From assembly GCA_965214865.1 (NCBI GenBank), contig CBDCCN010000001.1:451747-515746 (forward strand): DNA of 64,000 nt, written 5' to 3'. A program made the translations under genes and the position numbers. This document shows positions 4,643-56,500 of the stretch, one piece after another; within the stretch, counting starts at the first letter, position 1, and every line of letters begins with the position of its first letter. The notes beneath the pieces are model-generated. The model searched no databases. It saw only the letters and a program-made list of their open reading frames with translations, and had not been told where the DNA came from. The stretch is from Vicinamibacterales bacterium (GTDB lineage Bacteria; Acidobacteriota; Vicinamibacteria; Vicinamibacterales; UBA8438).

Positions 4643-4868
4643 GCCGGAGTATACGCCCCCGACGACCCGCGTCGCGGCCGGTGAGGTACATACGCTGCTC
4701 GATGCGGCGACGATTGTCGCCGAACCTGTCGGGCTATCCTGCTCGTGGCGCCCGACCCTGTCGGACCCGCGGGACGACATGGTGGTGGAAACGGCAGTGA
4801 ACGGACAGGCGGACTTGCTGGTCACCTTCAATCTGCGGCACTTTCAGCCGGCGCCAAAGGACCTTTAG
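4641..4868 (+). pseudogene. 5'-truncated PIN-domain toxin remnant
   Basis: The C-terminal part of the 75-aa ORF (LSDPRDDMVVETAVNGQADLLVTFNLRHF) matches the C-terminal half of PIN_3/TIGR00305-like toxins. The N-terminal half is absent and that space is occupied by mntA on the opposite strand. Confidence 0.5.
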
Positions 4869-4932
4869 CTCTCGAGCGGGCCGGCGGCGGCCGACCGCCT
4901 GGACGGGGAGACGAGATGCCATGAACGGCGCC

Positions 4933-5006
4933 CCCGTCACGTCCTCTCACGACGGCGCCCGGAACGCCACCAGCGCTGCGGAGTTGATGCCGCCCACGGC
5001 GCGGTT
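4933..5006 (-). repeat. diverged 74-bp tandem copy of the 3' end of the PQQ dehydrogenase gene (relic ...NRAVGGINSAALVAFRAPS*)
   Basis: 4933-4975 matches 5007-5049 with 3 mismatches (cccgtcacgtcctctca(c/t)gacggc(gc/ag)ccggaacgccaccagcg). Weaker similarity continues for ~30 nt. The relic keeps its own stop codon (4947-4949) and the same 14 nt that follow the functional stop. Confidence 0.8.
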
Positions 5007-5020
5007 CCCGTCACGTCCTC

Positions 5021-7063
5021 TCATGACGGCAGCCGGAACGCCACCAGCGAGGGCGACTCGCCGCCGACGGTGAGTGCGATGTACTGCCGGCCGTCCAGCA
5101 GGTAGGTCATCGGCGTCCCGATGGCCCCGCCCGGCAGATCTATCGCGGCCAGGGCCTCGCCGGACGCCTTGTCGTAGGCGACGAGCTGCGGCCCGTCGTC
5201 CGCACCGCCGGCGGTCAGCGCCTGCACGAGCAGGGTCTTCGTCAGCAGCGGGCCGTTCCGGCCGCTGTCTCCGCCCAGCGGGGGCAGATCGAGGTGGCGC
5301 AGCAGCGGGTGGTTGCGGATGCGGTCGCCGTCGCCGAGGGGCGTCATCCAGAGGTGCTCCCCCGTGTTCATGTCGATGGCGGTCATCCGCGAGTACGGCG
5401 GCTTCCAGAGCGGCAGGCCCTGCGGCATGACCGGCGTCCGCCGCGGATTGCCGCCGTCGAGGAACGGCGCCCCGCCGCGGCTCAGGACGTACCGCAGGGT
5501 CGAATCCTCGCCCGGGGCCGGCTCGCGGAACCGCATCACCGAGTGGGCGTTCCGTGACGGGACATAGAGGACGCCGGTCTCCGGATCGACGGCCGCCCCG
5601 CCCCAGCTCGCCCCGCCGCCGGCGCTCGGGCGGAAGATCGTGCCGTCGAGGGACAGGGGCGTGTACAGCGGACCGAGGCGGAAACCCTCCACCGCCTCCA
5701 CCGCCATCCGGCGGACCTCCGGCGTGAAGTCGATGAGGTCGTCGAGGGTCGCGCCCTGGTATTCGAACGGGGCCGGCCGCGTCGGAAACGGCTGCGTCGG
5801 CGACAGCACCTCTCCTTCCAGGTCCGTGTCGGTCGCCACCGGCCGCTCTTCGATCGGCCAGATAGGCTCGCCGGTCACCCGGTCGAAGGCATAGACGAAG
5901 CCCTGCTTCGTCACCTGCGCCAGCGCCTTCACCCGGCGCCCGTCGACGGTGACGTCCAGCAGGTTGGGACCGGTCGGGTTGTCGTAGTCCCAGACGCCGT
6001 GGCGCACCATCTGGAAGTGCCAGACCCGCTGCCCGGTCTCCAGGTCGACGCAGACGAGGCTCTCCGCGAACAGGTTGTCGCCGATCCGGTGCCCGCCGTA
6101 GTAGTCCGAGGTCGGCGTGCTGGTCGGCAGGTAGACGTAGCCGAGCTCGGGGTCCGCCGCGATGCTGCCCCAGACGTTGGTGTTGCCGGAGTAGCGCCAC
6201 GCTTCGTCCAGCCACGTGTCGGAGCCGAACTCGTCGGCGCTCTGCGGCACGGTGTGGAAGTCCCACTTGTGCCGGCCGGTGCGGGCGTCGTAGGCGCGGG
6301 CGAACCCCGGCGCGTTCTCCCTCCCGAGCAGGTAGTCGTGCACCGACGAGCCGACGATGATCGTGTCGCCCACCACCAGCGGCGGCGAACGGGACGGCGG
6401 CGGCAGCCGGCTGGGGTTCTCGCGCGCCCGCGGGATGCCCTCCTCCAGGCTCACGCGCCCGTTGTCGCCGAAGTCCGTGGCCGGCAGACCCGTCCGCGCG
6501 TCGACCGCCGTCAGGTAGCCGTCGCCGGTGCCCCAGATGATGCGCGCCTCGTCGCCGTCCTCCCACCAGGCCACCCCGCGGTGGTTCCAGGGAGACGGCA
6601 GCGGCGGGCTGCCGGCCTCGTAGACGCGCGGGTTGTGGATCCAGAGCGTCTCCCCGGTGCGTGCGTCGACCGCCGCCGCCTGGTACAGCGGCGTCGCCAA
6701 GTACAGCACGCCGTCCACCATGAGCGGTGTCGCCGACAGGCGTGCGATGCCCGGCCGGGTCACCCAGAGATCCGGATTCGCCGCCTCGAGGCGCTCGAAG
6801 ACCGTCTCGGCCGCGACGAGGGAAACGCCGCTCTCGTCCTCGACCGGCAGATGCGTGTCGGCGGTGCGCCAGCGCCACGCCAGCTCCAGATCCGCGAAGT
6901 TGTCGCCGTCGATCTGGTCGAGCGGCGCGTACTTCGTGCCCCAGGCGTCGGCGGCATAGGTGCGCCACTCGCCCCCGGCGGCGCCCTGCTGTGCCCCGGC
7001 GGGCGCGGCCGCCAGCCACGCGACCAGCAGCGCGCCCCCCAGGATCCCTGTACTCCGGCTCAT
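5021..7063 (-). CDS. PQQ-dependent dehydrogenase, glucose/quinate-dehydrogenase-like, periplasmic
   Basis: Start at ATG 7063 within track ORF 5021..7573. Signal MSRSTGILGGALLVAWLAAAPAGAQQ. 680 aa with PQQ-propeller blocks (ATPLMVDGVLYLATP, DARTGETLW, NVWGSIAADPELGYVYLPT, HGVWDYDNP, GGASWGGAAVDPETGVLYV). Confidence 0.85.
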   Translation of the reverse strand: MSRSTGILGGALLVAWLAAAPAGAQQGAAGGEWRTYAADAWGTKYAPLDQIDGDNFADLELAWRWRTADTHLPVEDESGVSLVAAETVFERLEAANPDLWVTRPGIARLSATPLMVDGVLYLATPLYQAAAVDARTGETLWIHNPRVYEAGSPPLPSPWNHRGVAWWEDGDEARIIWGTGDGYLTAVDARTGLPATDFGDNGRVSLEEGIPRARENPSRLPPPSRSPPLVVGDTIIVGSSVHDYLLGRENAPGFARAYDARTGRHKWDFHTVPQSADEFGSDTWLDEAWRYSGNTNVWGSIAADPELGYVYLPTSTPTSDYYGGHRIGDNLFAESLVCVDLETGQRVWHFQMVRHGVWDYDNPTGPNLLDVTVDGRRVKALAQVTKQGFVYAFDRVTGEPIWPIEERPVATDTDLEGEVLSPTQPFPTRPAPFEYQGATLDDLIDFTPEVRRMAVEAVEGFRLGPLYTPLSLDGTIFRPSAGGGASWGGAAVDPETGVLYVPSRNAHSVMRFREPAPGEDSTLRYVLSRGGAPFLDGGNPRRTPVMPQGLPLWKPPYSRMTAIDMNTGEHLWMTPLGDGDRIRNHPLLRHLDLPPLGGDSGRNGPLLTKTLLVQALTAGGADDGPQLVAYDKASGEALAAIDLPGGAIGTPMTYLLDGRQYIALTVGGESPSLVAFRLPS

Positions 7064-24369: not shown

Positions 24370-25578
24370 TCAAGCATGCCGAACGTCGTCCGCCGAATCC
24401 GGACGCAGGTCGAACGTCACCCGGACGAAACGGTTGCGCTCGTCGCTGACGAGGGCCGGCTCGGTCCCGTTGAAGCGCGTCATGGCGTGGCGCATCGTCA
24501 GCCAGCCCCGCCCGCGGCGCTCCATCAATCCGCGGACGACCATGGCGTTCGCCATCATCTCGTTGCGCGAGCGCGGTGCGCCGCCCTGCCGCGCCTGCTC
24601 CACCGTCATGTGGTTCGGCAAGGCGCCCGGGCTCGTGACCACGACGCGGTCGTCGAACACCTCCAGCAGGATCTGGGATCCGACGATGGCGTAGTCCCGA
24701 TGGATGACCGCGTTGACCAGCGCCTCGCGCAGGACGTGCTCCGGCAGCGGTGGAACGTCCCGGCGATGGAGCCCCTGGTAAACCTCGCGTCTTCCCAGGC
24801 TCCGAAACCACCCCATCGCACGGCTCACCTGATCTTCCAGACGCCCCTTGCCCTCCCCGGCGCTCAACACGTCGGCCGCCTGATCGGCGCCGCCGTATGC
24901 GGCGCACTGCACGAACAGACTCAGCGTGTGCGGATAGGCCTGGGGATCGCGTCCGAACACCATCAACCCGTATAGCGTGGGACGGAGCACGCCGCCCAGC
25001 TCGTCGACGACGCCGGCGTTCCGCAGGTCGTCGTCGCGCGCCGGCTGCGGCGCCTCCTCGGTCTCGAGTCCCTGGGAACGCATGAAGGACCGGACGGCGC
25101 CGAAGTCGACGTCCTCGATGGAAGCGGACGGAACGACCTGCTTCTCGGTGAGGACGAACCCGAACGCGTTCAGCAGCTCCTGAAGCTCCGACGGCGACGG
25201 CGCCACCGTCGCCCGGCTGCATCGAATCCAGAATCGGCCGTCGGACACGAACGGCTCGTAGCCGCGCTGGTGGCGATGCACGTCGACCCAGTGCACCCAC
25301 CCGTTGCCGGTATCGCGGCGCCCGCACCGTGCGGTGATCGGCTTGCCGCAGCCGGTGTGCAGCAGGTTCGCCAGCCGTTCCTGCACGGCATCAGGACTCG
25401 CGCCGACGCCGACAACCGTTCCGTCGTCGTCGACGCCGAGCACCAGCAGCCCGCCGTCGCCGTTCGCGAAAGCGCACAGGGTCCGGGCGATGGCGCGCAA
25501 ATCTCCGCTGCTGCGTTTGAACTCCGTGCGGGCATCTTCCCCCGCACCGATTCGCCGCTGCACGTCAGGCCATTCCAT
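24370..25578 (-). CDS. AlbA_2 (Schlafen-like) + HATPase_c_4 putative DNA-binding/ATP-binding protein, paralog 1
   Basis: ATG 25578. 402 aa with TEFKRSSGDLRAIARTLCAFANGDGGLLVLGVDDDG (AlbA_2) and LREALVNAVIHRDY (HATPase_c_4-like). Confidence 0.8.
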   Translation of the reverse strand: MEWPDVQRRIGAGEDARTEFKRSSGDLRAIARTLCAFANGDGGLLVLGVDDDGTVVGVGASPDAVQERLANLLHTGCGKPITARCGRRDTGNGWVHWVDVHRHQRGYEPFVSDGRFWIRCSRATVAPSPSELQELLNAFGFVLTEKQVVPSASIEDVDFGAVRSFMRSQGLETEEAPQPARDDDLRNAGVVDELGGVLRPTLYGLMVFGRDPQAYPHTLSLFVQCAAYGGADQAADVLSAGEGKGRLEDQVSRAMGWFRSLGRREVYQGLHRRDVPPLPEHVLREALVNAVIHRDYAIVGSQILLEVFDDRVVVTSPGALPNHMTVEQARQGGAPRSRNEMMANAMVVRGLMERRGRGWLTMRHAMTRFNGTEPALVSDERNRFVRVTFDLRPDSADDVRHA

Positions 25579-48386: not shown

Positions 48387-48481
48387 GGTGCGGTCACCCT
48401 CGCCTGGACACGTTCCGCCTGGAACCCGAAGATAATCCCGTATAGGGTACATGACGAGCGGTCTTGTATCCGGGTGGGATC

Positions 48482-48718
48482 ATGCCAGTCATGCCAGTAC
48501 GATTCAACATCACGATGGACGAAATGCTCTACCGCCGGCTGAAGGATGCCTGCCCGCCGAAGGGCGTCAGTCGCTTCATCAGCGACGCCGTGCGCGCCCG
48601 CCTTCATCCCGATCAGGACGCGCTCGAAGCCGGTTACAAGGCGGCGGCTCGCGAAGCGTGGCGCACCGAGCTGGCGGACGCCTGGGAAGTCACCGAAGTC
48701 GAAGATTGGCCGCAATGA
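48482..48718 (+). CDS. ribbon-helix-helix antitoxin upstream of a MazF/PemK-like gene
   Basis: MPVMPVRFNITMDEMLYRRLKDACPPKGVSRFISDAVRARL fits an RHH pattern. The stop overlaps the ATG of the next gene (ATGA at 48715-48718). Confidence 0.65.
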   Translation: MPVMPVRFNITMDEMLYRRLKDACPPKGVSRFISDAVRARLHPDQDALEAGYKAAAREAWRTELADAWEVTEVEDWPQ

Positions 48719-48921
48719 AGGGATACCCGCGTCGCGGAGACGTCTACTGGGTATCGCTCGATCCGGTACGAGGCGCCGAGATGTCGAGTCGCTCTACCCG
48801 GGCGAGGCCATCGTGTCGGTGAAGGGCAAGCGGGCTCGAGTTCTCGGAGACCAGATTCGATCGCTCGATCGGCAAAGACTGCATGGCCGCAGCGGGCGGC
48901 GTCGACGCGTTAGTCGACTAA
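48715..48921 (+). pseudogene. mazF: MazF/PemK-family toxin relic (internal deletion plus frame changes)
   Basis: N-terminus MKGYPRRGDVYWVSLDPVRGAE. The usual ~30-35 aa core (..RP.VVVS..........VVP.TS) is missing. The family resumes in another frame as LYPGEAIVSVKGKRARVLGDQIRSLDRQRL. The end is unclear. Confidence 0.6.
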
Positions 48922-48979
48922 CTGTTGCGCGTCTTCGAGACGCTCTGGCTCTTCGCGCCGTGACGGCGCGCGGCCGAAT

Positions 48980-49300
48980 TCACCAGCCGTACTGCCCCTT
49001 CGACACCAGCGCGAACGATTCCCGGACGAGCGCCCGCAGGACGTTCATGTCGATGTCCTCGAGCTTTTTGATGTAGAGGCACGACTTCCCGGTCGTGCAG
49101 CGGCCGAGCTTCTTCATCAACGCATCGTGCCGCTGGAAGCCGGTCATGATGTAGACGGTCAGGCTCTGCTTGCGCGGCGACACCCCGGTCTCCATCCAGT
49201 CGCCTTCGCGCCCGGTCGGGTACTTGTAGTGGTAGCTGCCGAACCCGATGATGCTGTCACCCCACATCGCCGACGGTTCACCAGTGACGTCGGCCATCAA
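48980..49300 (-). CDS. DUF1801 (YdhG-like) domain protein; family homology continues upstream without a canonical start
   Basis: MWGDSIIGFGSYHYKYPTGREGDWMETGVSPRKQSLTVYIMTGF...TGKSCLYIKKLEDIDMNVL. Upstream in frame (to ~49400) VEAFLDRIENAKRREDCRSVVEL is also family-like, but no ATG/GTG/TTG precedes it after the in-frame stop. Confidence 0.7.
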   Translation of the reverse strand: MMADVTGEPSAMWGDSIIGFGSYHYKYPTGREGDWMETGVSPRKQSLTVYIMTGFQRHDALMKKLGRCTTGKSCLYIKKLEDIDMNVLRALVRESFALVSKGQYGW

Positions 49301-49447: not shown

Positions 49448-49984
49448 TCACAGCCCTGTCTCGCGGTCCTCGAACACCCGTTTCAACGCCTCGCGCGCCG
49501 CCCGATGAACCGGCACCCCCGGCAACACCTCGTCCTTGATCCGGATCGCCTCACCCTCGTTGCCGACTCCCAATTCCCTGCACAGCACCGCGATATCATC
49601 CCGGTCCTTGAACCTGCCCGCCACAAGCTTCATGGCCAGCAAGTGCTGCGCCGAGGCACCCGTCACGGTCAGATATTGCGACTGGTACAACGTCCCCGCC
49701 CGCTCGTCGGCCCCCTTCGGCAACACGACCGCCGCCGGCTCGTTGAACCACCCTTCCTCGAAGCCGCGGCGCCTGCCCACCGCTCGTGCCGCCTCCGTGA
49801 GCTTTTCGCGGCCGCTGTCAACACGCACGTCGAGATCCACCGTTCTCCGATTGCGGTCGAAAGCCACGCTCATAGCGGCGCCGCCGAACAGGTAGACATG
49901 CGCCCGCGCGCCTCGCATTCCCAGTTCCGCCGACAACTCCTCGAACAGCTCGAGAACCTGCTTACGGCCAAGGGGTCCAGCCAA
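49448..49984 (-). CDS. minimal nucleotidyltransferase (MNT/AbiEii/DUF6036-like)
   Basis: NTase motif VYLFGGAAMSVAFDRNRRTVDLDV, later HLLAMKLVAGRFKDRDDI. Start uncertain: TTG 49984 preceded by GGGGAGGGG, or GTG 50032. Overlaps the upstream gene's 3' end. Confidence 0.65.
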   Translation of the reverse strand: MAGPLGRKQVLELFEELSAELGMRGARAHVYLFGGAAMSVAFDRNRRTVDLDVRVDSGREKLTEAARAVGRRRGFEEGWFNEPAAVVLPKGADERAGTLYQSQYLTVTGASAQHLLAMKLVAGRFKDRDDIAVLCRELGVGNEGEAIRIKDEVLPGVPVHRAAREALKRVFEDRETGL

Positions 49985-50567
49985 ATCGCTCCCCTCCCCG
50001 CGCGTCGAGATCCCGGGGGTCCGGAATCGCACCGTGCCGCAAGAACGCGGCGGGCGCGAACATCACCGAGTACAGTCGCGCCCAGGGCGTATCAGCCAGC
50101 ACCCACGTGCTGTCCAGGAACCGCTCGCGCTCGTCCACCCATCCCGGCCGCTCGTGACCGTGTAGCCAGGCCACGTGCTCCACCATCGCCGCTACGAGCG
50201 CGTCCCACTTCGTCCCGGTCAGCGGCACCCGCGCCCCAAGCGCCTCGTGCTGCTCCTCCGCGCTCCGCGCGTGGAAACTCCGCGGGAGCTGACACACGAT
50301 CCAGCGGGCGGTATCTTCCTCCGACCACCCCTCCTCGACGCCCCGCAGAAAATCCGCCAGCAGCAGCGGCGGCAGATCCGCCCCTCCGACCCGCTCAGCC
50401 GCCGCGTGTGCCACTTTCTCGGACTCCGGCAAGTTCCCGTCCGACTTGTCCGCGGCGCGTACAGACCATCCGCCGCGCCTCCTGACCCCCATCACCGCCG
50501 CCGTCCTCGCCCGCGCCTGCTCGAACTCCCGCCGCGCAGCCCGCGCGGATCCCGGATGCCACACCAA
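49962..50567 (-). CDS. hypothetical protein, upstream partner of the minimal nucleotidyltransferase
   Basis: 201-aa ORF (TTG/GTG start) with non-shadow composition in its C-terminal 150 aa (WSEEDTARWIVCQLPRSF..., KWDALVAAMVEHVAWLHGHERPGWVDERERFLDSTW). No family recognised. Starts 39 nt after the RHH gene stop. Confidence 0.5.
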   Translation of the reverse strand: MVWHPGSARAARREFEQARARTAAVMGVRRRGGWSVRAADKSDGNLPESEKVAHAAAERVGGADLPPLLLADFLRGVEEGWSEEDTARWIVCQLPRSFHARSAEEQHEALGARVPLTGTKWDALVAAMVEHVAWLHGHERPGWVDERERFLDSTWVLADTPWARLYSVMFAPAAFLRHGAIPDPRDLDARGGERFGWTPWP

Positions 50568-50606
50568 ATTATGTCACCACCATCGGGTCTCCACTTTCTC
50601 CATTTT

Positions 50607-50807
50607 CTACATCGTGACATTCCCGCGCTTCGGCTCCGCGGGGGCGATCTCCGGCTTGCTCTCGCGGGCGAACAGCATGTTGAACGCCTCCCCGCAGATC
50701 GCATGGAGCGTCGCGCCCCGGTCGAGCGCCAGCCGCTTCAGCTCGTCCCGGACAATCGCCGGTACGTGCACCGTCAGCGACACGGTGCCGACTCGACCTG
50801 GCGGCAC
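50607..50807 (-). CDS. ribbon-helix-helix (CopG/ParG-like) small DNA-binding protein
   Basis: 66 aa with a GTG start. VSLTVHVPAIVRDELKRLALDRGATLHAICGEAFNMLFAR fits a beta-strand plus two-helix RHH pattern. Confidence 0.6.
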   Translation of the reverse strand: MPPGRVGTVSLTVHVPAIVRDELKRLALDRGATLHAICGEAFNMLFARESKPEIAPAEPKRGNVTM

Positions 50808-50944
50808 AGCCGCCGGCGAACGGCGATCTCCGAAGGTTGATCACGGCGCCCGGCACACCATCGCACGGACGCTTCCGGTGATCCCGCTGCTCGATCAGCT
50901 TCGCGTTTTCCTTCGAGGCGTTCGATGCGCACGTCCCGATGATC

Positions 50945-51021
50945 CCCCCAGCGGCGTTTCTCGGTGAGACGGCGCTCCTCTTCGGCCGTGGCCTGGCCTC
51001 GCCGAGGGCCGATGCGAATCC
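50945..51021 (-). repeat. 77-bp perfect copy of an internal AlbA_2-gene segment (copy 1, intergenic)
   Basis: cccccagcggcgtttctcggtgagacggcgctcctcttcggccgtggcctggcctcgccgagggccgatgcgaatcc is identical to 52855..52931. It encodes IRIGPRRGQATAEEERRLTEKRRWG on the minus strand. The flanks are unrelated. Confidence 0.95.
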
Positions 51022-51119
51022 GCCTCTTCAAGGAATAAGGGAGGATTGATCTGCGTGGAGACGCTGCGGGAAACGGGGAGCCCCGGTGGCCGCCGCGCGC
51101 CGGCCGGGTCCGGCTGGCC

Positions 51120-52106
51120 TCAACACCCGCTATCGAGACGCCTGAGCAACTCCCGTGCGAGGTTGCAGAAGTCCGTGTAGCAGTCACGGACCGCCTGTTG
51201 ATGCGCACCGATGGCGCCGTGGGCCGGCTTCAGCAGGAACATGGGGCGGTTCGCCTCCTGCGCCATCGGCATGAGCGAGCGGTAGTCCTTCAGGTGCGCC
51301 AGACAGTTCGCGTCCTGGCCTTCCGGCACGGATGGCGGACCGCTTTCCGTTACGGCTTTCGCGTATTCCGACGGGATCCTGTCGATCCACCGGCCGTAGG
51401 CCTGGACGGGTCTGGACAGTCGGGTGGAGTGCCGCATGATGACGTAGCCGAGCGGCTTCATGTTGCCCGCCGGCAATCGAATGTCCAACTCCGCCGGCTT
51501 CCTTGCGGCGCGCTCCCGCCAGGCGTTCCGCCAATCCCTGAGAATCGGCCCCACGTTTCTCAATCCCTGCAAGGAAAACAGGTCGGGAGCCAGGGGAATG
51601 ACGACACGGTCGCCGGCGACCAGGGCGGCGCGGTTGATCGCGCCGAGATTCGGACCGACGTCCAGCAGCGCCAGGTCCGCTCCGAACTGCTCTCCGGCCC
51701 GTGAGATCAACCGCGCGAACGCCGTCGTGACGCGGAACGCCCGCTTGTCCCCGTCCAGACACTTCGGCCATTGCGTGGAGAGCTCGTCTTCCCTTCTGGA
51801 GAGCCCGAGATCGCCCATCAGCAACCCGATCTTCTCGCCGATTTCCTCGACGTGCGGAGACTCGACGATATCCCCGGTGCCCTCGAACAGCGGGGCGACG
51901 CCCTCGTCAATCGTGCCCTGGTTCCCATTTCTCCACAGACGTTCCAACTCTGTCTCGTCAAGAAACATCCCCGTCAGGTTGGCCTGGGGATCCAGGTCCG
52001 CGGCGATGACGCGCCGGCCGCGCTCCCCGAGCATCCAGGCCAGGTGATAGACGAGCGACGTCTTGCCCACGCCCCCCTTGTTGTTGAAGAAGGCGACGGT
52101 CGTCAT
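51120..52106 (-). CDS. ParA/Soj-like deviant Walker-A ATPase (long, 328 aa)
   Basis: MTTVAFFNNKGGVGKTSLVYHLA, DLDPQANLT and LLDVGPNLG. The ATG overlaps the stop of the upstream AlbA_2 gene (ATGA 52103-52106). Confidence 0.85.
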   Translation of the reverse strand: MTTVAFFNNKGGVGKTSLVYHLAWMLGERGRRVIAADLDPQANLTGMFLDETELERLWRNGNQGTIDEGVAPLFEGTGDIVESPHVEEIGEKIGLLMGDLGLSRREDELSTQWPKCLDGDKRAFRVTTAFARLISRAGEQFGADLALLDVGPNLGAINRAALVAGDRVVIPLAPDLFSLQGLRNVGPILRDWRNAWRERAARKPAELDIRLPAGNMKPLGYVIMRHSTRLSRPVQAYGRWIDRIPSEYAKAVTESGPPSVPEGQDANCLAHLKDYRSLMPMAQEANRPMFLLKPAHGAIGAHQQAVRDCYTDFCNLARELLRRLDSGC

Positions 52107-53292
52107 GGCCGCCTCCGAACGGTGACGAGGACGAACACGTCCTGAACGTCGAACTCCGGCGGTGGATTACCGTTTTCCGCCAACGTCCTGCGCGCCGTTT
52201 CTATGCCGATTCCGAAGCGCTGCATGAAGCCCATGTTCTTCATCGCTTCCGCGATGGTGGGGTTGCGGTAGGAGGTCGCTCCCTGTCCGAAATTGTCGCG
52301 TCCGACTTCCCCGAACGCGGTGCCCGGGCTCAGGATTTCCACACGGTCGACGAGCCAGGAGATCCGCACGGGAGTGTTTGAACTCTCGTAGTTTCTGTGA
52401 ATCGCCGCGTTGCGGAGGAGTTCGCGGAGGGCCTCGTAGGGATAGCTTCGTTCCTCGACGTGCCGTTCTCCGCGCGTATCGAGCGCATGGGGAATGTTCA
52501 ACCTCAGCAAACGGTCCGCTTCCCGCAACTGCTCCGGCAACGGTCCGGAAAGTTCAGCATGGTCGAGTATCTCATCCGTCACGGCGGTCCCGCCGTAGCG
52601 GACGAACTGCAGATATGCTCCGGGAAACCAGTACCGCGGATCCCTGCCCAGCATGAGGATCGCCGTGACCGTGGGCGCACCGTTCCGCGCCACGAGACGC
52701 AGCGCCTGCAGTTGCTCCTCCCGATTACGGCGGTTCTCCGTCAGGACTTCCGGAGAAACCGCACAGGGCAGGTAGTCGTTCTCTCGAACGCCCGCATGTC
52801 CAGGTCGGCCTTCACCGTCGCCCCGGCGACGCCCTGCATGTCGTAGGGAACGTTCCCCCAGCGGCGTTTCTCGGTGAGACGGCGCTCCTCTTCGGCCGTG
52901 GCCTGGCCTCGCCGAGGGCCGATGCGAATCCAGCACCGGCCGTCCGCCTTTAGCGGCGGATTGTCCGAGGGCTCGACCTGGACTACCGCGACGTCGCAGT
53001 TGCGCAGCCGCTTCCTGGCGACCTCCATGACGGGGAAAGGCAGGATCTTCCCGTCCGTCCGCAGCCCGCCGAGCGTCCGGAGCAAGCCGTCGTCGATGGC
53101 CGAGCCGGCACAGCTTCCGTCGTCTCCCAATCCGATGAAGAGAAGTCCCGGTGCTCCGTTCCCCGGCAGATCGTTGGCGAACGCGCATATCGCCTCCCGG
53201 AACTTGTCGAGATCCCGCACGGACGTGGTGAATTCCACACCGTCGCTCTCGCCGCTCTCGATTCGGTCGAGCAGTTCTTCGTCGCCCAGCAT
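52103..53292 (-). pseudogene. AlbA_2 (Schlafen-like) + HATPase_c_4 protein, paralog 2, one frame disruption (or assembly indel)
   Basis: ATG 53292 after GGAAGGAAG. ESDGVEFTTSVRDLDKFREAICAFANDLPGNGAPGLLFIGLGDDG. Frame A ends ...DLDMRAFER. Frame B continues NDYLPCAVSPEVLTENRR...LRELLRNAAIHRNY... to 52103. The shift is in gagaga at ~52779-52786. Confidence 0.8.
52855..52931 (-). repeat. 77-bp perfect repeat, copy 2 (inside the AlbA_2 paralog 2 coding sequence)
   Basis: Identical to 50945..51021. The spacing between copies is 1,910 bp. Confidence 0.95.
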
Positions 53293-53566
53293 GCCTCTTC
53301 CTTCCGGTTTCCGATGCGAAGTCTTCGTCCGATTATGACGCCGGATGTGCGCGGCGAGTGATCGGCGCCCCCCTGCGGGGCCGGGAGGCACCTCGGACAG
53401 GTTCCGCGTCGCACCGGGAACGGCGGCCGGATTCACCAGCCGTACCGACCCTTCGACACCCGTTCGCAGGACTCCCGCGCGGGCTCGCGGCAAGGTGGGA
53501 CGAGCGAACGACGGGCGTGAGAGGGGCCGCGGTTCCGCCGGCGGGCGGAGACCGCGGCCCCGAGGA

Positions 53567-56500
53567 CTACCAGCTCAACTGCGTCGACAGCCGCAGCATC
53601 CGGCCGAGCACGTAGCGGCTCGGCTGCGCATAGACGCCCGACGTGTAGTTGTAGGACGCCTCGGCGTACCACACGTCGGTGTTCGTCACGTTGTAGATCT
53701 CGAGCTGCGGGCGGAACTCCATGCCGCCGGCGTTGCCGATCCACTGGAAGCTGAAGTTCAGCATGTTCGTCCGCGGCAACTGGTGGATCGTGCCGGCCGG
53801 CGCGACCGGCACCGTGATCGACGACTGCACCATGTCGGGTATGACCGGCATGCCCGGCTCGCAGGGCGCGCCGTTGATGGTGGCGCCGTGACACCGCGGC
53901 GCGCGGCCGTGGGACCCGCCGTCGGCGGTGTACACCGTGTTCCGGTTGATGAGCCAGTTGACCGGCAGCAGCTCGTCCACGCGCTGGATGTCCCCCGTCA
54001 ACCGGCCCGTCACACTGTTCAGCACCAGGCTGAACTGCATGTTCGCAGGCAGCGGGAAGTAGCCGCCGAGCTTGAAGTCGTTCTTGAAGTCGACCCCGTC
54101 GTAGGCGACCTGCGCGCCGCCCGGCAGGCTGACGTTGTACCGGTTCATGTCGTTGCGGTCGCAGAAGCGGTCCCCGTTCGGGTCGCCCCGGTTGTCGCAC
54201 TCGCTCGTGATCTTGCGCTGCGTGGTCAGGCTGGAGATGAGCTGTCCCCCGCCCGGCAGCCGGGCGTTGAGCGCCAACTCGATCCCGTTGTAGACGCCGG
54301 TGTGGCCGATCGGGTTGGTGACGAGGTTGTCCACCTGTCCCACCAGGTCCGTGCCCGCCAGGTCGTAGACGTTGAAGACCTCGCCGTTGAGCGGGTTCAC
54401 CACCTCGACCGCGCGGAACGACCCCGGCGCCTCCCAGTGCCGGTTGTAGATGAACATCCCCTCGTAGCCGGTGTCGGTGAAGAGGATGTCGTGGAACGAC
54501 CGGCGGTACCAGCCGACGCTGAGGGAGACGTTGCGCGTGAGCTCCCGCTCCACGCTGACCGACGTCTCGATGTTCCACTCGCGCACCAGATCCGGGTCGA
54601 TGTCGTCGAGGCGGCGCGTGCCGAAGTTCGGGGGCAGCCGGGCGAAGTCGAGCTCGTGGTCCTGCACGATGCTGTCGCCGTTCGGATCGCTCCACGGAAG
54701 GGCGAACGTCGTCAGCGCCATCGGATTCACCCGGTTCGGCAACGCCGTGGTGGTCGGGGTCAGGTACTTCCCGGTGCTGAACTTCAGCGCGGTGCGGGCG
54801 TCGCCGAAGACGTCCCACGCGACGCCGATGCGCGGCGACCACTCGGGCCCCCAGCAGGGCACGCAGGTCACCTCGGCGAAGTCGCGTCCCCTGGCGAAGC
54901 GGCCGTCCGGGACGCGCTGCGGGGGCACCGACCCGTTGAGCCAGTCGGCGCGCAGGCCGCCGGTGATCGTCACCCGGTCGACGGTCCAGGCGTCCTGGAT
55001 GAACCAGCCGGTCTCCTTGACCGAGTTCAACCGGATGAACGGGTAGTTGCCTGCCAGCACCTCGTAGGCGCGCCCGTCGCGGATGTTCATCCGGCTGATG
55101 TCGCCGTTGTTGAAGCGGTGCTGCTCGGCTGTGCCCCAGGCGTAGGAGAAACCGGTCTTGAAGTTGTGCGACCCCGTGACGTAGGACACCGAGCTCATCA
55201 CCCGCTCGCCCGGCAGGTTCCAGGAGAAGTCCTCCACCGAATCGAACTGGATGTTCCGGTCGAGGTCGCGCTTGTGCACGAACTGCAGCCAGTTGTCCGA
55301 CCAGCGCGGGAAGACGGTGTTCGGTTGCGGGTCGCTGCAGCAGTCGGCGACGCCGGAGCTCCCGTAACCCGCCTCGATCAGCAGCCGGCTGCTGATCGTC
55401 GAGGTCCACTTCGCCTGTCCCTGCCAGTAGGGCGCGTGGTGCCAGCCCTGGCCCTTGTTCTGGTAGTTGCGGGCGGTCTCCGGGTCGGGACCGCGCTGGT
55501 CGTCGAGCAGGAATGCGGATTGAATCCAGGCAGACTCCGGGGTGGCGCGCCACGTGCCGCGGTAGCGGGCCTCGTGCGGCAGGTCGATGAACGGTCCGCG
55601 CCGCTTGTTCAGCCGATCGAGGGTGGCGCTGAACTTGTTGTTCGGATTCGCCTGCCAGGTGAGCCGGGTGACGCTGGAGATGATGTCCTCCTCGTTGAAG
55701 AACTGGCTCCGGTCGTCGAACAGCCAGCCCGGCTCCGGCGTCCACGCGCCCCAGTAGCGGACCGACTCGTGGAACCAGAGCTGGTCCTGGACGATCGGCC
55801 CGCCGATCGACCCGGAGTAGTCGAACAGCTTGTTGAAGTCGGCCGCCTCGGTCGTGCCCGCCTGCCGCAGCCGGTCGGAGTAGTTGTTGGCGATCCAACC
55901 GCCCGCGGTGTGGCCGACGTAGCCCTGGCCGCTGAAGGTGTTGCCGCCTTCCTTCGGGATGATGTTCATGACGACGCCGCCCGCCTGCATCTCGGCGTTG
56001 CCGCCGCCGCCGCCCGCCTGCACCGCCATCTCCTGCGTGGCCAGGTCCTGGTTGTACATGACCGGGACGCCTTCGAGGGCCAGCAGGTCGAGGGCCATGC
56101 CCTCCTGCATCACGGTGGTGTGCTTGGCGTTGGCGCCGCGCGCCTCGAGCTGCAGGTCGTTGACGTAGCGCGAGCCGCCGACGTCTACCCCCGCCATCGA
56201 CACGCCGGGCACCATCATCGCCTGGGTCCAGGGGCTGCCGGTGTTGATGACGTTGTCGAGCACCTCGCGGGAGAGCACCTGCACGCGGGCCGCCTGCTGC
56301 ACGTCGACCACCGGGGCCGCGCCGGAGACGGTCACCGTCTCCTCGAGGGCGCCGACCGACAGTTGCACGTCCAGCTCCGCCGTGAACTCCGACGGCAGGT
56401 CGAAGTTCTCCTGCACCACCGTGCCGAAGCCGGCCAGCGAGAAGGTCAGGCTGTAGATGCCCGGCCGCAGGTTGACGATGCTGTAGCGCCCCTGGCCGTC

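Follow-up and report, generated by a model that had tools for sequence, protein, structure and literature searches.

A damaged member of a widespread Schlafen-ParA cassette, probably concerned with conflict or defence, in a Vicinamibacterales genome

Background

What does a ParA-like ATPase do when its gene is translationally coupled to one encoding a Schlafen (AlbA_2) protein, and does the small ribbon-helix-helix (RHH) gene that follows belong with them? The question is raised by a locus in a 64,000-nucleotide stretch of a Vicinamibacterales bacterium (GenBank assembly GCA_965214865.1, contig CBDCCN010000001.1, positions 451,747 to 515,746; called the window below, with coordinates counted from its first nucleotide). 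All of the cassette genes and the RHH gene lie on the minus strand. An earlier note on this DNA had left the role of the module unexplained, suggesting either a partition cassette with AlbA_2 in the place of ParB or an ATPase-driven system of two or three genes. We find that the AlbA_2 and ParA-like genes form a horizontally spread two-gene unit, widespread in bacteria and archaea. A role has also been put forward for such pairs: in a preprint of October 2026, Li, Burroughs and Aravind (10.64898/2026.10.19.760177) describe ParA-effector systems (the ConB1 assemblage) that include a histidine-kinase-Schlafen (HisK-Schlafen) class predicted to be immune systems. This kind of cassette is already known as a computational prediction and, judged from its sequence, the window locus is a new, damaged member.

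Results and discussion

Two overlapping genes

The cassette comprises the following features:

52103..53292, minus strand: AlbA_2/HATPase_c_4 gene ('Schlatpase'), with Pfam domains on two frames; predicted ribonuclease (RNase) effector, broken
52741..53292, minus strand: truncated product of 183 amino acids with the Schlafen/AlbA_2 domain only (from the list of open reading frames (ORFs); PF04326 at residues 15-128)
52780..52785, minus strand: frameshift site, where the coding strand has an additional GA (seen when the DNA of five relatives is aligned)
51120..52106, minus strand: ParA-like (SIMIBI, deviant Walker A) ATPase of 328 amino acids, intact (AAA_31, E 2e-24; match to PDB 3PG5)
52103..52106, minus strand: ATGA stop/start overlap (translational coupling; letters read directly)

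Pfam places SLFN_AlbA_2 on the frame running from 53292 to 52741 (E 7e-12) and HATPase_c_4 on the one that runs to 52103 (E 1.5e-16), and assigns AAA_31/CbiA to the ParA-like protein, whose ORF begins MTTVAFFNNKGGVGKTS. The plus strand reads TCAT at 52103-52106, or ATGA on the coding strand, and these four nucleotides carry both the ATG of the ParA-like gene and the TGA that closes the HATPase_c_4 frame, just as the earlier note had described.

Conservation of the pairing

We have surveyed the pairing from both sides, using the ParA-like protein to collect 80 genome loci from many phyla and the AlbA_2 protein to collect 78 assessable loci, which reach as far as methanogens and a Nitrososphaera. 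An AlbA_2/HATPase_c_4 homolog lies directly upstream on the same strand in 77 of the 80 ParA-seeded loci. In the reciprocal survey a ParA gene lies directly downstream, intact in 70 of 78 loci and frameshifted in 2, and is absent in 6. The 4-nucleotide overlap is identical in 47/59 intact pairs, and the two proteins co-diverge, their pairwise distances being correlated (r = 0.54, Mantel p = 0.001). The pair spans Acidobacteriota, Cyanobacteria, Planctomycetota, Chloroflexota and methanogenic archaea. At least three natural proteins join AlbA_2(-HATPase_c_4) and ParA in a single chain (L013, 740 amino acids; P0136, 731 amino acids; P0226, 690 amino acids). Clearly, the pairing is not a matter of chance; few features of either family are as well conserved. 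The earlier note had allowed that it might not be conserved in other genomes, and this has decisively proved not to be so.

Some individual loci depart from the general pattern. At the junction of the L013 fusion (4783-7002) there is a short tandem duplication (IRKQEMIRIRKQETI). In L007 (4704-5795) the ParA-like gene follows one for a 363-residue protein without AlbA_2 similarity, whose N-terminus looks, by eye, like the PD-(D/E)xK domain of HsdR; the ParA clade would then be paired here with another putative nuclease.

Decay of the cassette takes several forms. The Schlafen gene is inactivated next to an intact ParA gene in the window and in L001, L010, L017, L030 and L038. In L030 and L038 it is insertion sequences (ISs) that interrupt the AlbA_2 gene, and in L038 an ORF that by eye resembles a transposase has a full AlbA_2 copy on one side and a C-terminal fragment of the gene on the other. 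The reverse also occurs: ParA is frameshifted in L136 and L162. Two otherwise full-length ParA proteins have a degenerate Walker A motif (NNRGRVGTT in L002:3436-4416 and SNKGEVGTT in L024:6001-7041); L024 has no AlbA_2 gene and adjoins ORFs resembling type I restriction genes.

These patterns bear on one alternative explanation, in which the cassette is a toxin-antitoxin-like addiction module with the Schlafen RNase as toxin and the ParA-like protein as its neutraliser, serving to stabilise genomic islets with no anti-phage role. A tightly coupled two-gene unit with a patchy, horizontally spread distribution would suit such a module, as would the toxin-antitoxin genes that abound around the window locus (a PemK remnant, RHH genes and a DUF6036 nucleotidyltransferase pair; see below) and the six loci in which the Schlafen gene is broken and ParA intact. 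The opposite decay is also found, however, both as frameshifts (L136, L162) and as degenerate Walker A motifs (L002, L024), so that the argument from decay of the toxin only is weak. In addition, 6 of 78 Schlafen orthologs occur without a ParA gene, a 328-residue ATPase is unlike known antitoxins, and the nesting within restriction systems described below fits defence cargo. We regard addiction as an unlikely explanation, with the proviso that addiction and defence roles are not mutually exclusive.

The Schlafen gene and its frameshift

The AlbA_2 gene of the window is spread over two frames: DNA alignment gives TTCGAGAGAAC in the window against TTCGAGAAC in five relatives. On the plus strand, positions 52780-52785 read TCTCTC where the relatives have TCTC, which amounts to a +2 (GA) insertion on the coding strand. 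Past this insertion the upstream frame terminates at 52741-52743, and the Schlafen gene is split after residue ~166; this locus does not carry an intact effector gene. When compared with relatives, both halves show a ratio of nonsynonymous to synonymous substitution rates (dN/dS) of 0.08-0.21, with dS ~0.4-1.1. Such strong purifying selection on both halves means that the break is either recent or an assembly error. Because of the frameshift, the local copy of the cassette is probably dead, as far as can be judged from the DNA, unless the frameshift is itself an error of assembly. This lowers the functional claim for this copy and not its membership by descent.

The structure of the protein can be examined through its relatives. 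The window gene is 84-93% identical to the intact ortholog of 395 amino acids in L085, and an AlphaFold2 (AF2) model of that ortholog (88% identical) has a predicted local distance difference test score (pLDDT) of 84.7. This model matches PDB entry 3LMM (DIP2311 of C. diphtheriae) over its full length (Foldseek E 1e-18, ~19% identity). It also matches the AlbA_2 domain 2KYY, the histidine-kinase-type catalytic (CA) domains of VanS and PDK, and the nuclease domains of SLFN13 (5YD0) and SLFN11 (7FEX). Together, Pfam and the ortholog model give an N-terminal Schlafen/AlbA_2 fold (PF04326), followed by a GHKL (Bergerat) ATPase fold (PF13749) and a small, helix-turn-helix (HTH)-like C-terminal part.

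This is the architecture of the Schlatpase and prokaryotic Schlafen (pSlfn) proteins (SLFN-pAgo RzAgo, 10.64898/2026.05.29.728809; pSlfn, PMC13056530), with AlbA_2 first, GHKL second and a short HTH-like part at the C-terminus. Prokaryotic Schlafens are phage-triggered, Mn-dependent tRNases that act against phage through an Ex4(E/D)xK site, and pSlfn-HisKinase(-HTH) proteins are their commonest architectures (pSlfn, Nat Microbiol 2026, PMC13056530). In SLFN-pAgo, the GHKL domain drives an ATP-dependent tetramerisation that activates the Schlafen nuclease (10.64898/2026.05.29.728809). The catalytic Glu pair of this site is kept in our family: E15 is present in 59/59 sequences and E20 in 58/59, the remaining one having Asp. 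The third position (22) is Lys in 32 sequences and Thr in 27, the window protein being one of the latter (ESDGVEFT); the Lys of the published motif is replaced in the window subclade. The N..HR.Y block of the GHKL domain is invariant throughout the family. Another difference lies in the partner. The proteins in the Schlatpase and pSlfn papers are single chains with fused sensors, for which neither a conserved partner gene nor a ParA is reported, whereas here a separate ParA-like ATPase is constant.

The ParA-like ATPase

The ParA-like protein of the window has NNKGGVGKT and DLDPQ motifs, and its Walker A, DxDPQ and Walker B motifs are invariant family-wide. Residues 1-315 of its 328 align end to end with the 361-residue PDB chain 3PG5 (E 9e-26, ~30% identity), while the canonical Soj, ParA and ParF proteins match it around the P-loop and Walker B only. 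The earlier note described a C-terminal extension beyond the ParA core. The extra length is real but is not a private add-on: it is a family trait, since the family hardly varies in the C-terminal block KDYRSLMPMAQEAN.PMF and the alignment with 3PG5 runs from end to end. Thousands of close relatives of ~328 amino acids are found by protein search. Compared with L085, L004 and L002, the window gene shows a dN/dS of 0.15-0.2; the comparison with L003 gives an outlying 0.68, which we put down to a presumed coordinate error. The closest solved structures of both partners, 3PG5 for ParA and 3LMM for the AlbA_2 protein, are structural-genomics proteins of unknown function. In related Corynebacterium loci (L173-L194) a gene of the 3PG5 type follows that for a ~975-residue protein, with no AlbA_2 gene adjoining.

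Does the ParA fold imply DNA partition? This explanation would have either the AlbA_2 protein as a substitute for ParB or the ParA-like and RHH proteins as a pair of the ParF/ParG type, making three genes. It draws on the deviant Walker A ParA fold, the presence of an RHH gene downstream on the same strand, and the DNA-binding-like C-terminus of the AlbA_2 protein. What the window protein shares with ParABS and ParF-ParG is a deviant Walker A P-loop ATPase fold with the signature lysine needed for ATP-sandwich dimers. In contrast to those systems, it is ~80-120 residues longer, with inserts common to 3PG5, and its partner is a nuclease/ATPase with an invariant nuclease site. There is no conserved ParB or ParG partner. 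No iterated centromere-like repeats are found in 50000-54000, where the only significant repeat is the 77-nucleotide, two-copy scar described below. The ParA clade is practically absent from plasmids: a search of 72,556 plasmid records gives 8 with any relative, all of ≤32% identity and from other lineages, and in the one that we examined (H2) ParA is paired with a SIR2 gene. The surveyed loci are chromosomal, in varied contexts, and the genes are far from any replication genes. The RHH protein matches an antitoxin RHH family and its gene is cut off from ParA by the scar. We reject partition, in view of the lack of a conserved ParB or ParG and of repeats and the near-absence from plasmids, and consider it highly improbable, together with the proposal that AlbA_2 replaces ParB; the nesting of the cassette in restriction-type systems and the absence of the RHH gene from the other loci also speak against that proposal.

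The RHH gene and the adjoining scar

The features downstream of the ParA gene, and the repeat that links them to the cassette, are:

52855..52931, no strand assigned: copy 1 of a 77-nucleotide direct repeat, within the AlbA_2 gene (codons ...RIGPRRGQATAEEERRLTEKRRWG; repeat search)
50945..51021, no strand assigned: copy 2 of the repeat, an orphan AlbA_2 fragment in the ParA-RHH spacer (repeat search)
50868..50946, minus strand: piece of an IS66-family transposase gene, from the part for the N-terminal coiled coil (89-93% identity to a genomic element)
50607..50807, minus strand: RHH gene, 66 amino acids (Antitox_RHH, PF20605, E 4e-11)
49448..50567, minus strand: ORF of 201 amino acids without a family match and a DUF6036/AbiEii-like nucleotidyltransferase gene, as overlapping ORFs (Pfam)

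The earlier note was correct in placing a 66-residue RHH gene 312 nucleotides beyond ParA, but not in counting it as a possible third member of the system. Homologs of the window RHH protein occur beside the cassette in 0 of the 80 ParA-seeded loci, and the same loci contain no homologs of the 201-residue ORF or of the nucleotidyltransferase and no recurring small third gene after ParA. An ORF of 67 residues in L005, L012 and L013 was considered for this role and rejected, as it appears to be the split-off N-terminus of a downstream ResIII/helicase gene. Of the system of two or three genes suggested earlier, the two genes stand and the third does not.

The 312-nucleotide gap itself contains the scar. 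The 77-nucleotide direct repeat is perfect, has only two copies in the genome and matches the AlbA_2 genes of relatives at 83-95%. Copy 2 abuts the 80-nucleotide IS66 transposase fragment, and together they fill much of the spacer. The fragment corresponds to part of the interior of a 1.85-kb element which is present in several copies in the genome and encodes zf-IS66 and DDE_Tnp_IS66. We also considered that a repeat of this length could be an assembly artefact at k = 77, and disfavour this. A real scar is more likely, if unproven, because the genome is in 4 contigs, a genuine IS66 fragment abuts copy 2 and there is a synteny breakpoint at this place.

The breakpoint can be seen by comparing gene orders. 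In the close Vicinamibacterales relatives L001 and L003 the order is TonB receptor, DUF1801, AlbA_2, ParA; L085 is the same except for PemK, PadR and MacB genes between the receptor and DUF1801. In the window the order is TonB receptor, AlbA_2, ParA, scar, RHH, 201-residue ORF, DUF6036 nucleotidyltransferase and then DUF1801. This supports the view that the scar in the spacer marks a rearrangement relative to these genomes. RHH homologs stand separately in two genomes of the same genus, and the DNA of the 201-residue ORF and nucleotidyltransferase is multi-copy in genomes of the same genus and family; these two ORFs look like a toxin-antitoxin-like pair, unrelated to the cassette. The RHH gene is a secondary neighbour that belongs with other genes, of the toxin-antitoxin type, probably moved beside ParA by an IS66-associated rearrangement. 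The lesson for annotation is that ParA is not a partition gene here and that RHH is not its partner.

On the other side of these genes, the region 48464-49076 holds the remnant of a PemK/MazF toxin gene: the first 20 and the last ~37 positions of the profile are left, in different frames, and the middle is deleted. It is preceded by an RHH-like ORF of 84 residues (48464-48718, plus strand; recognised by eye, with no Pfam family). The scar, the synteny and the decayed PemK gene thus place the cassette in an islet made up of toxin-antitoxin and IS sequences in decay.

Genomic context and restriction systems

Guanine plus cytosine make up 64-65% of the cassette and 70% of the genome. The cassette lies between HmaA and HmaB (PADLOC E = 0) in at least 10 of the 80 loci, and in L081-L084 it lies between Mod and Res of a Type III system. 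Further neighbours include NOV_C, AAA_15/AAA_21, SNF2 and DUF499 proteins. The HmaA-HmaB slot is that of the Hma-embedded systems HEC-01 to HEC-09, and genes embedded in Hma loci have been validated as defences in 7/9 tests (10.1101/2024.01.29.577857). HEC-01 to HEC-03 also share with the cassette a logic of ATPase plus nuclease. The ATPase of the cassette is nevertheless of the ParA type (SIMIBI) and not an ABC ATPase, and the pair is not among the named HEC systems.

It could be argued from this nesting that the cassette is an accessory or guard which monitors or regulates its host Hma, Type I or Type III system, in the way that PrrC is held by EcoprrI, or that it is a transcriptional regulator acting through its C-terminal HTH-like domain. 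Both restriction slots would agree with such a role. So would L087, in which an orphan AlbA_2 ortholog stands directly upstream of an ORF whose N-terminus by eye resembles type I HsdM, and the module exchange with type I restriction systems reported in the SLFN-pAgo preprint (10.64898/2026.05.29.728809). Against this, ~60 of the 80 loci have no restriction-type neighbour, 38/73 upstream neighbours are singletons, and no restriction system adjoins the cassette in the window or its closest relatives. With most loci lacking a restriction neighbour, the cassette is self-contained, and we consider an accessory role quite unlikely. A more specific version, in which ParA guards restriction-type machines of the Hma, Type III and Type I loci by reading the state of these DNA-tracking enzymes or of their DNA, seems to us similarly improbable. 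If it were true, this reading of state would be the reason why nesting in such loci was selected, and the Schlafen tRNase would be released when a phage disables restriction, giving a second line of defence like PrrC but built on a partition-type ATPase. The cost of the trigger would then be reflected in those loci where ParA is intact and the Schlafen gene next to it broken.

Comparison with ParA-effector systems

The closest counterpart of the cassette is the HisK-Schlafen class of ParA-effector systems. According to the preprint (10.64898/2026.10.19.760177), ParA proteins of the PriB1/ConB1 type are marked by an Asn as the first residue of Walker A, a Val within Walker A and a Gln two residues after the sensor-1 DxD. 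The window ParA carries all three (FFNNKGGVGKTS and ADLDPQAN), and they are invariant in sets of 16 and of 59 family members. As in the HisK-Schlafen class, the partner gene in the ParA operon encodes a Schlafen RNase with a histidine-kinase-type ATPase domain, on the Pfam domains and survey counts given above, and the distribution is wide and patchy. ParA relatives joined to other effectors are a further likeness: SIR2 is paired with ParA in L172, and in P0224 the ParA-like domain is fused to a C-terminal RES domain. The window copy differs from the class in its frameshifted effector gene, and its ParA clade differs in having a strongly conserved C-terminal part, which the preprint takes to be rapidly evolving. 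The nesting in Hma and Type III loci that we observe is not mentioned in the passages of the preprint consulted.

Proposed function

We consider it probable that the cassette serves in conflict or defence, with a Schlafen RNase as its effector and a ParA-type switch in control of it, and that it is inactive in this genome. In the proposal of the preprint, ParA captures the DNA of invaders, and failure to do so sets the effector free (10.64898/2026.10.19.760177). Along these lines, the ParA-like protein would be an ATP-driven dimer switch that senses or sequesters invading DNA and keeps the Schlatpase inactive. If this control were overcome, the GHKL domain would drive oligomerisation, and the Schlafen domain might then cut tRNA or rRNA and halt translation in the manner of abortive infection. 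What the sequences show is the architecture and its conservation, the coupling of the genes, the natural fusions, the catalytic residues and the nesting; the RNase activity, its control through ParA, the trigger and an abortive end are inferred.

A number of observations weigh against a defence role. The role itself is deduced from context and from homology of the effector domains. There is no model for the pair in PADLOC v2.0.0, where ParA has only P-loop-level matches to PDC-M28B and the AlbA_2 protein only partial matches to pAgo-associated models. Unique or housekeeping genes account for about half of the immediate neighbours, which makes the enrichment in defence islands partial; with so many flanks of this kind, the two genes are best seen as a self-contained, mobile unit. 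The DNA-interception model of the preprint assumes a C-terminal part that is 'rapidly evolving', whereas that of the ParA family here is highly conserved. The replacement of Lys by Thr in the Ex4ExK motif of the window subclade is another such point. The 6 AlbA_2 orthologs without a ParA gene include two from close Vicinamibacterales relatives, and their existence means that ParA is not strictly required for the Schlafen protein to be tolerated. Finally, the AF2 model of the window ParA, obtained from an alignment of 16 sequences, has a mean pLDDT of 47, too poor for a fold search.

The window itself adds little to the case: its copy has decayed and sits among the remains of broken toxin-antitoxin genes and ISs. 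The cassette is of wider interest because it would unite Schlafen tRNases, which are antiviral effectors from bacteria to humans, with partition-type ParA ATPases re-used as immune switches. It is abundant in many phyla as well as in archaea and compact (2.2 kb), and is a good candidate for a first experimental study.

Other copies in the genome

The earlier note also listed a second AlbA_2/HATPase_c_4 paralog, at 24370..25578 (minus strand), without a ParA partner. Pfam finds both domains in this paralog, which has the canonical motif, and the genome search gives no ParA-like match near it. A second cassette, strongly decayed and of a different lineage, is present at C4:1674569-1675193. It consists of a C-terminal fragment of AlbA_2 (47% identity) and, after it, the part of a ParA-like gene for residues 1-138 (60% identity), with an in-frame TAG. 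A third, distant ParA-like gene of the 3PG5 type is found at C4:2998916-2999776 (32% identity; Walker A HKGGVGKT). It lies between a small upstream ORF and a downstream ORF of 182 residues, beside an IS66 copy, and this region (C4:2998369-3000159) may be another system of the ParA-effector type.

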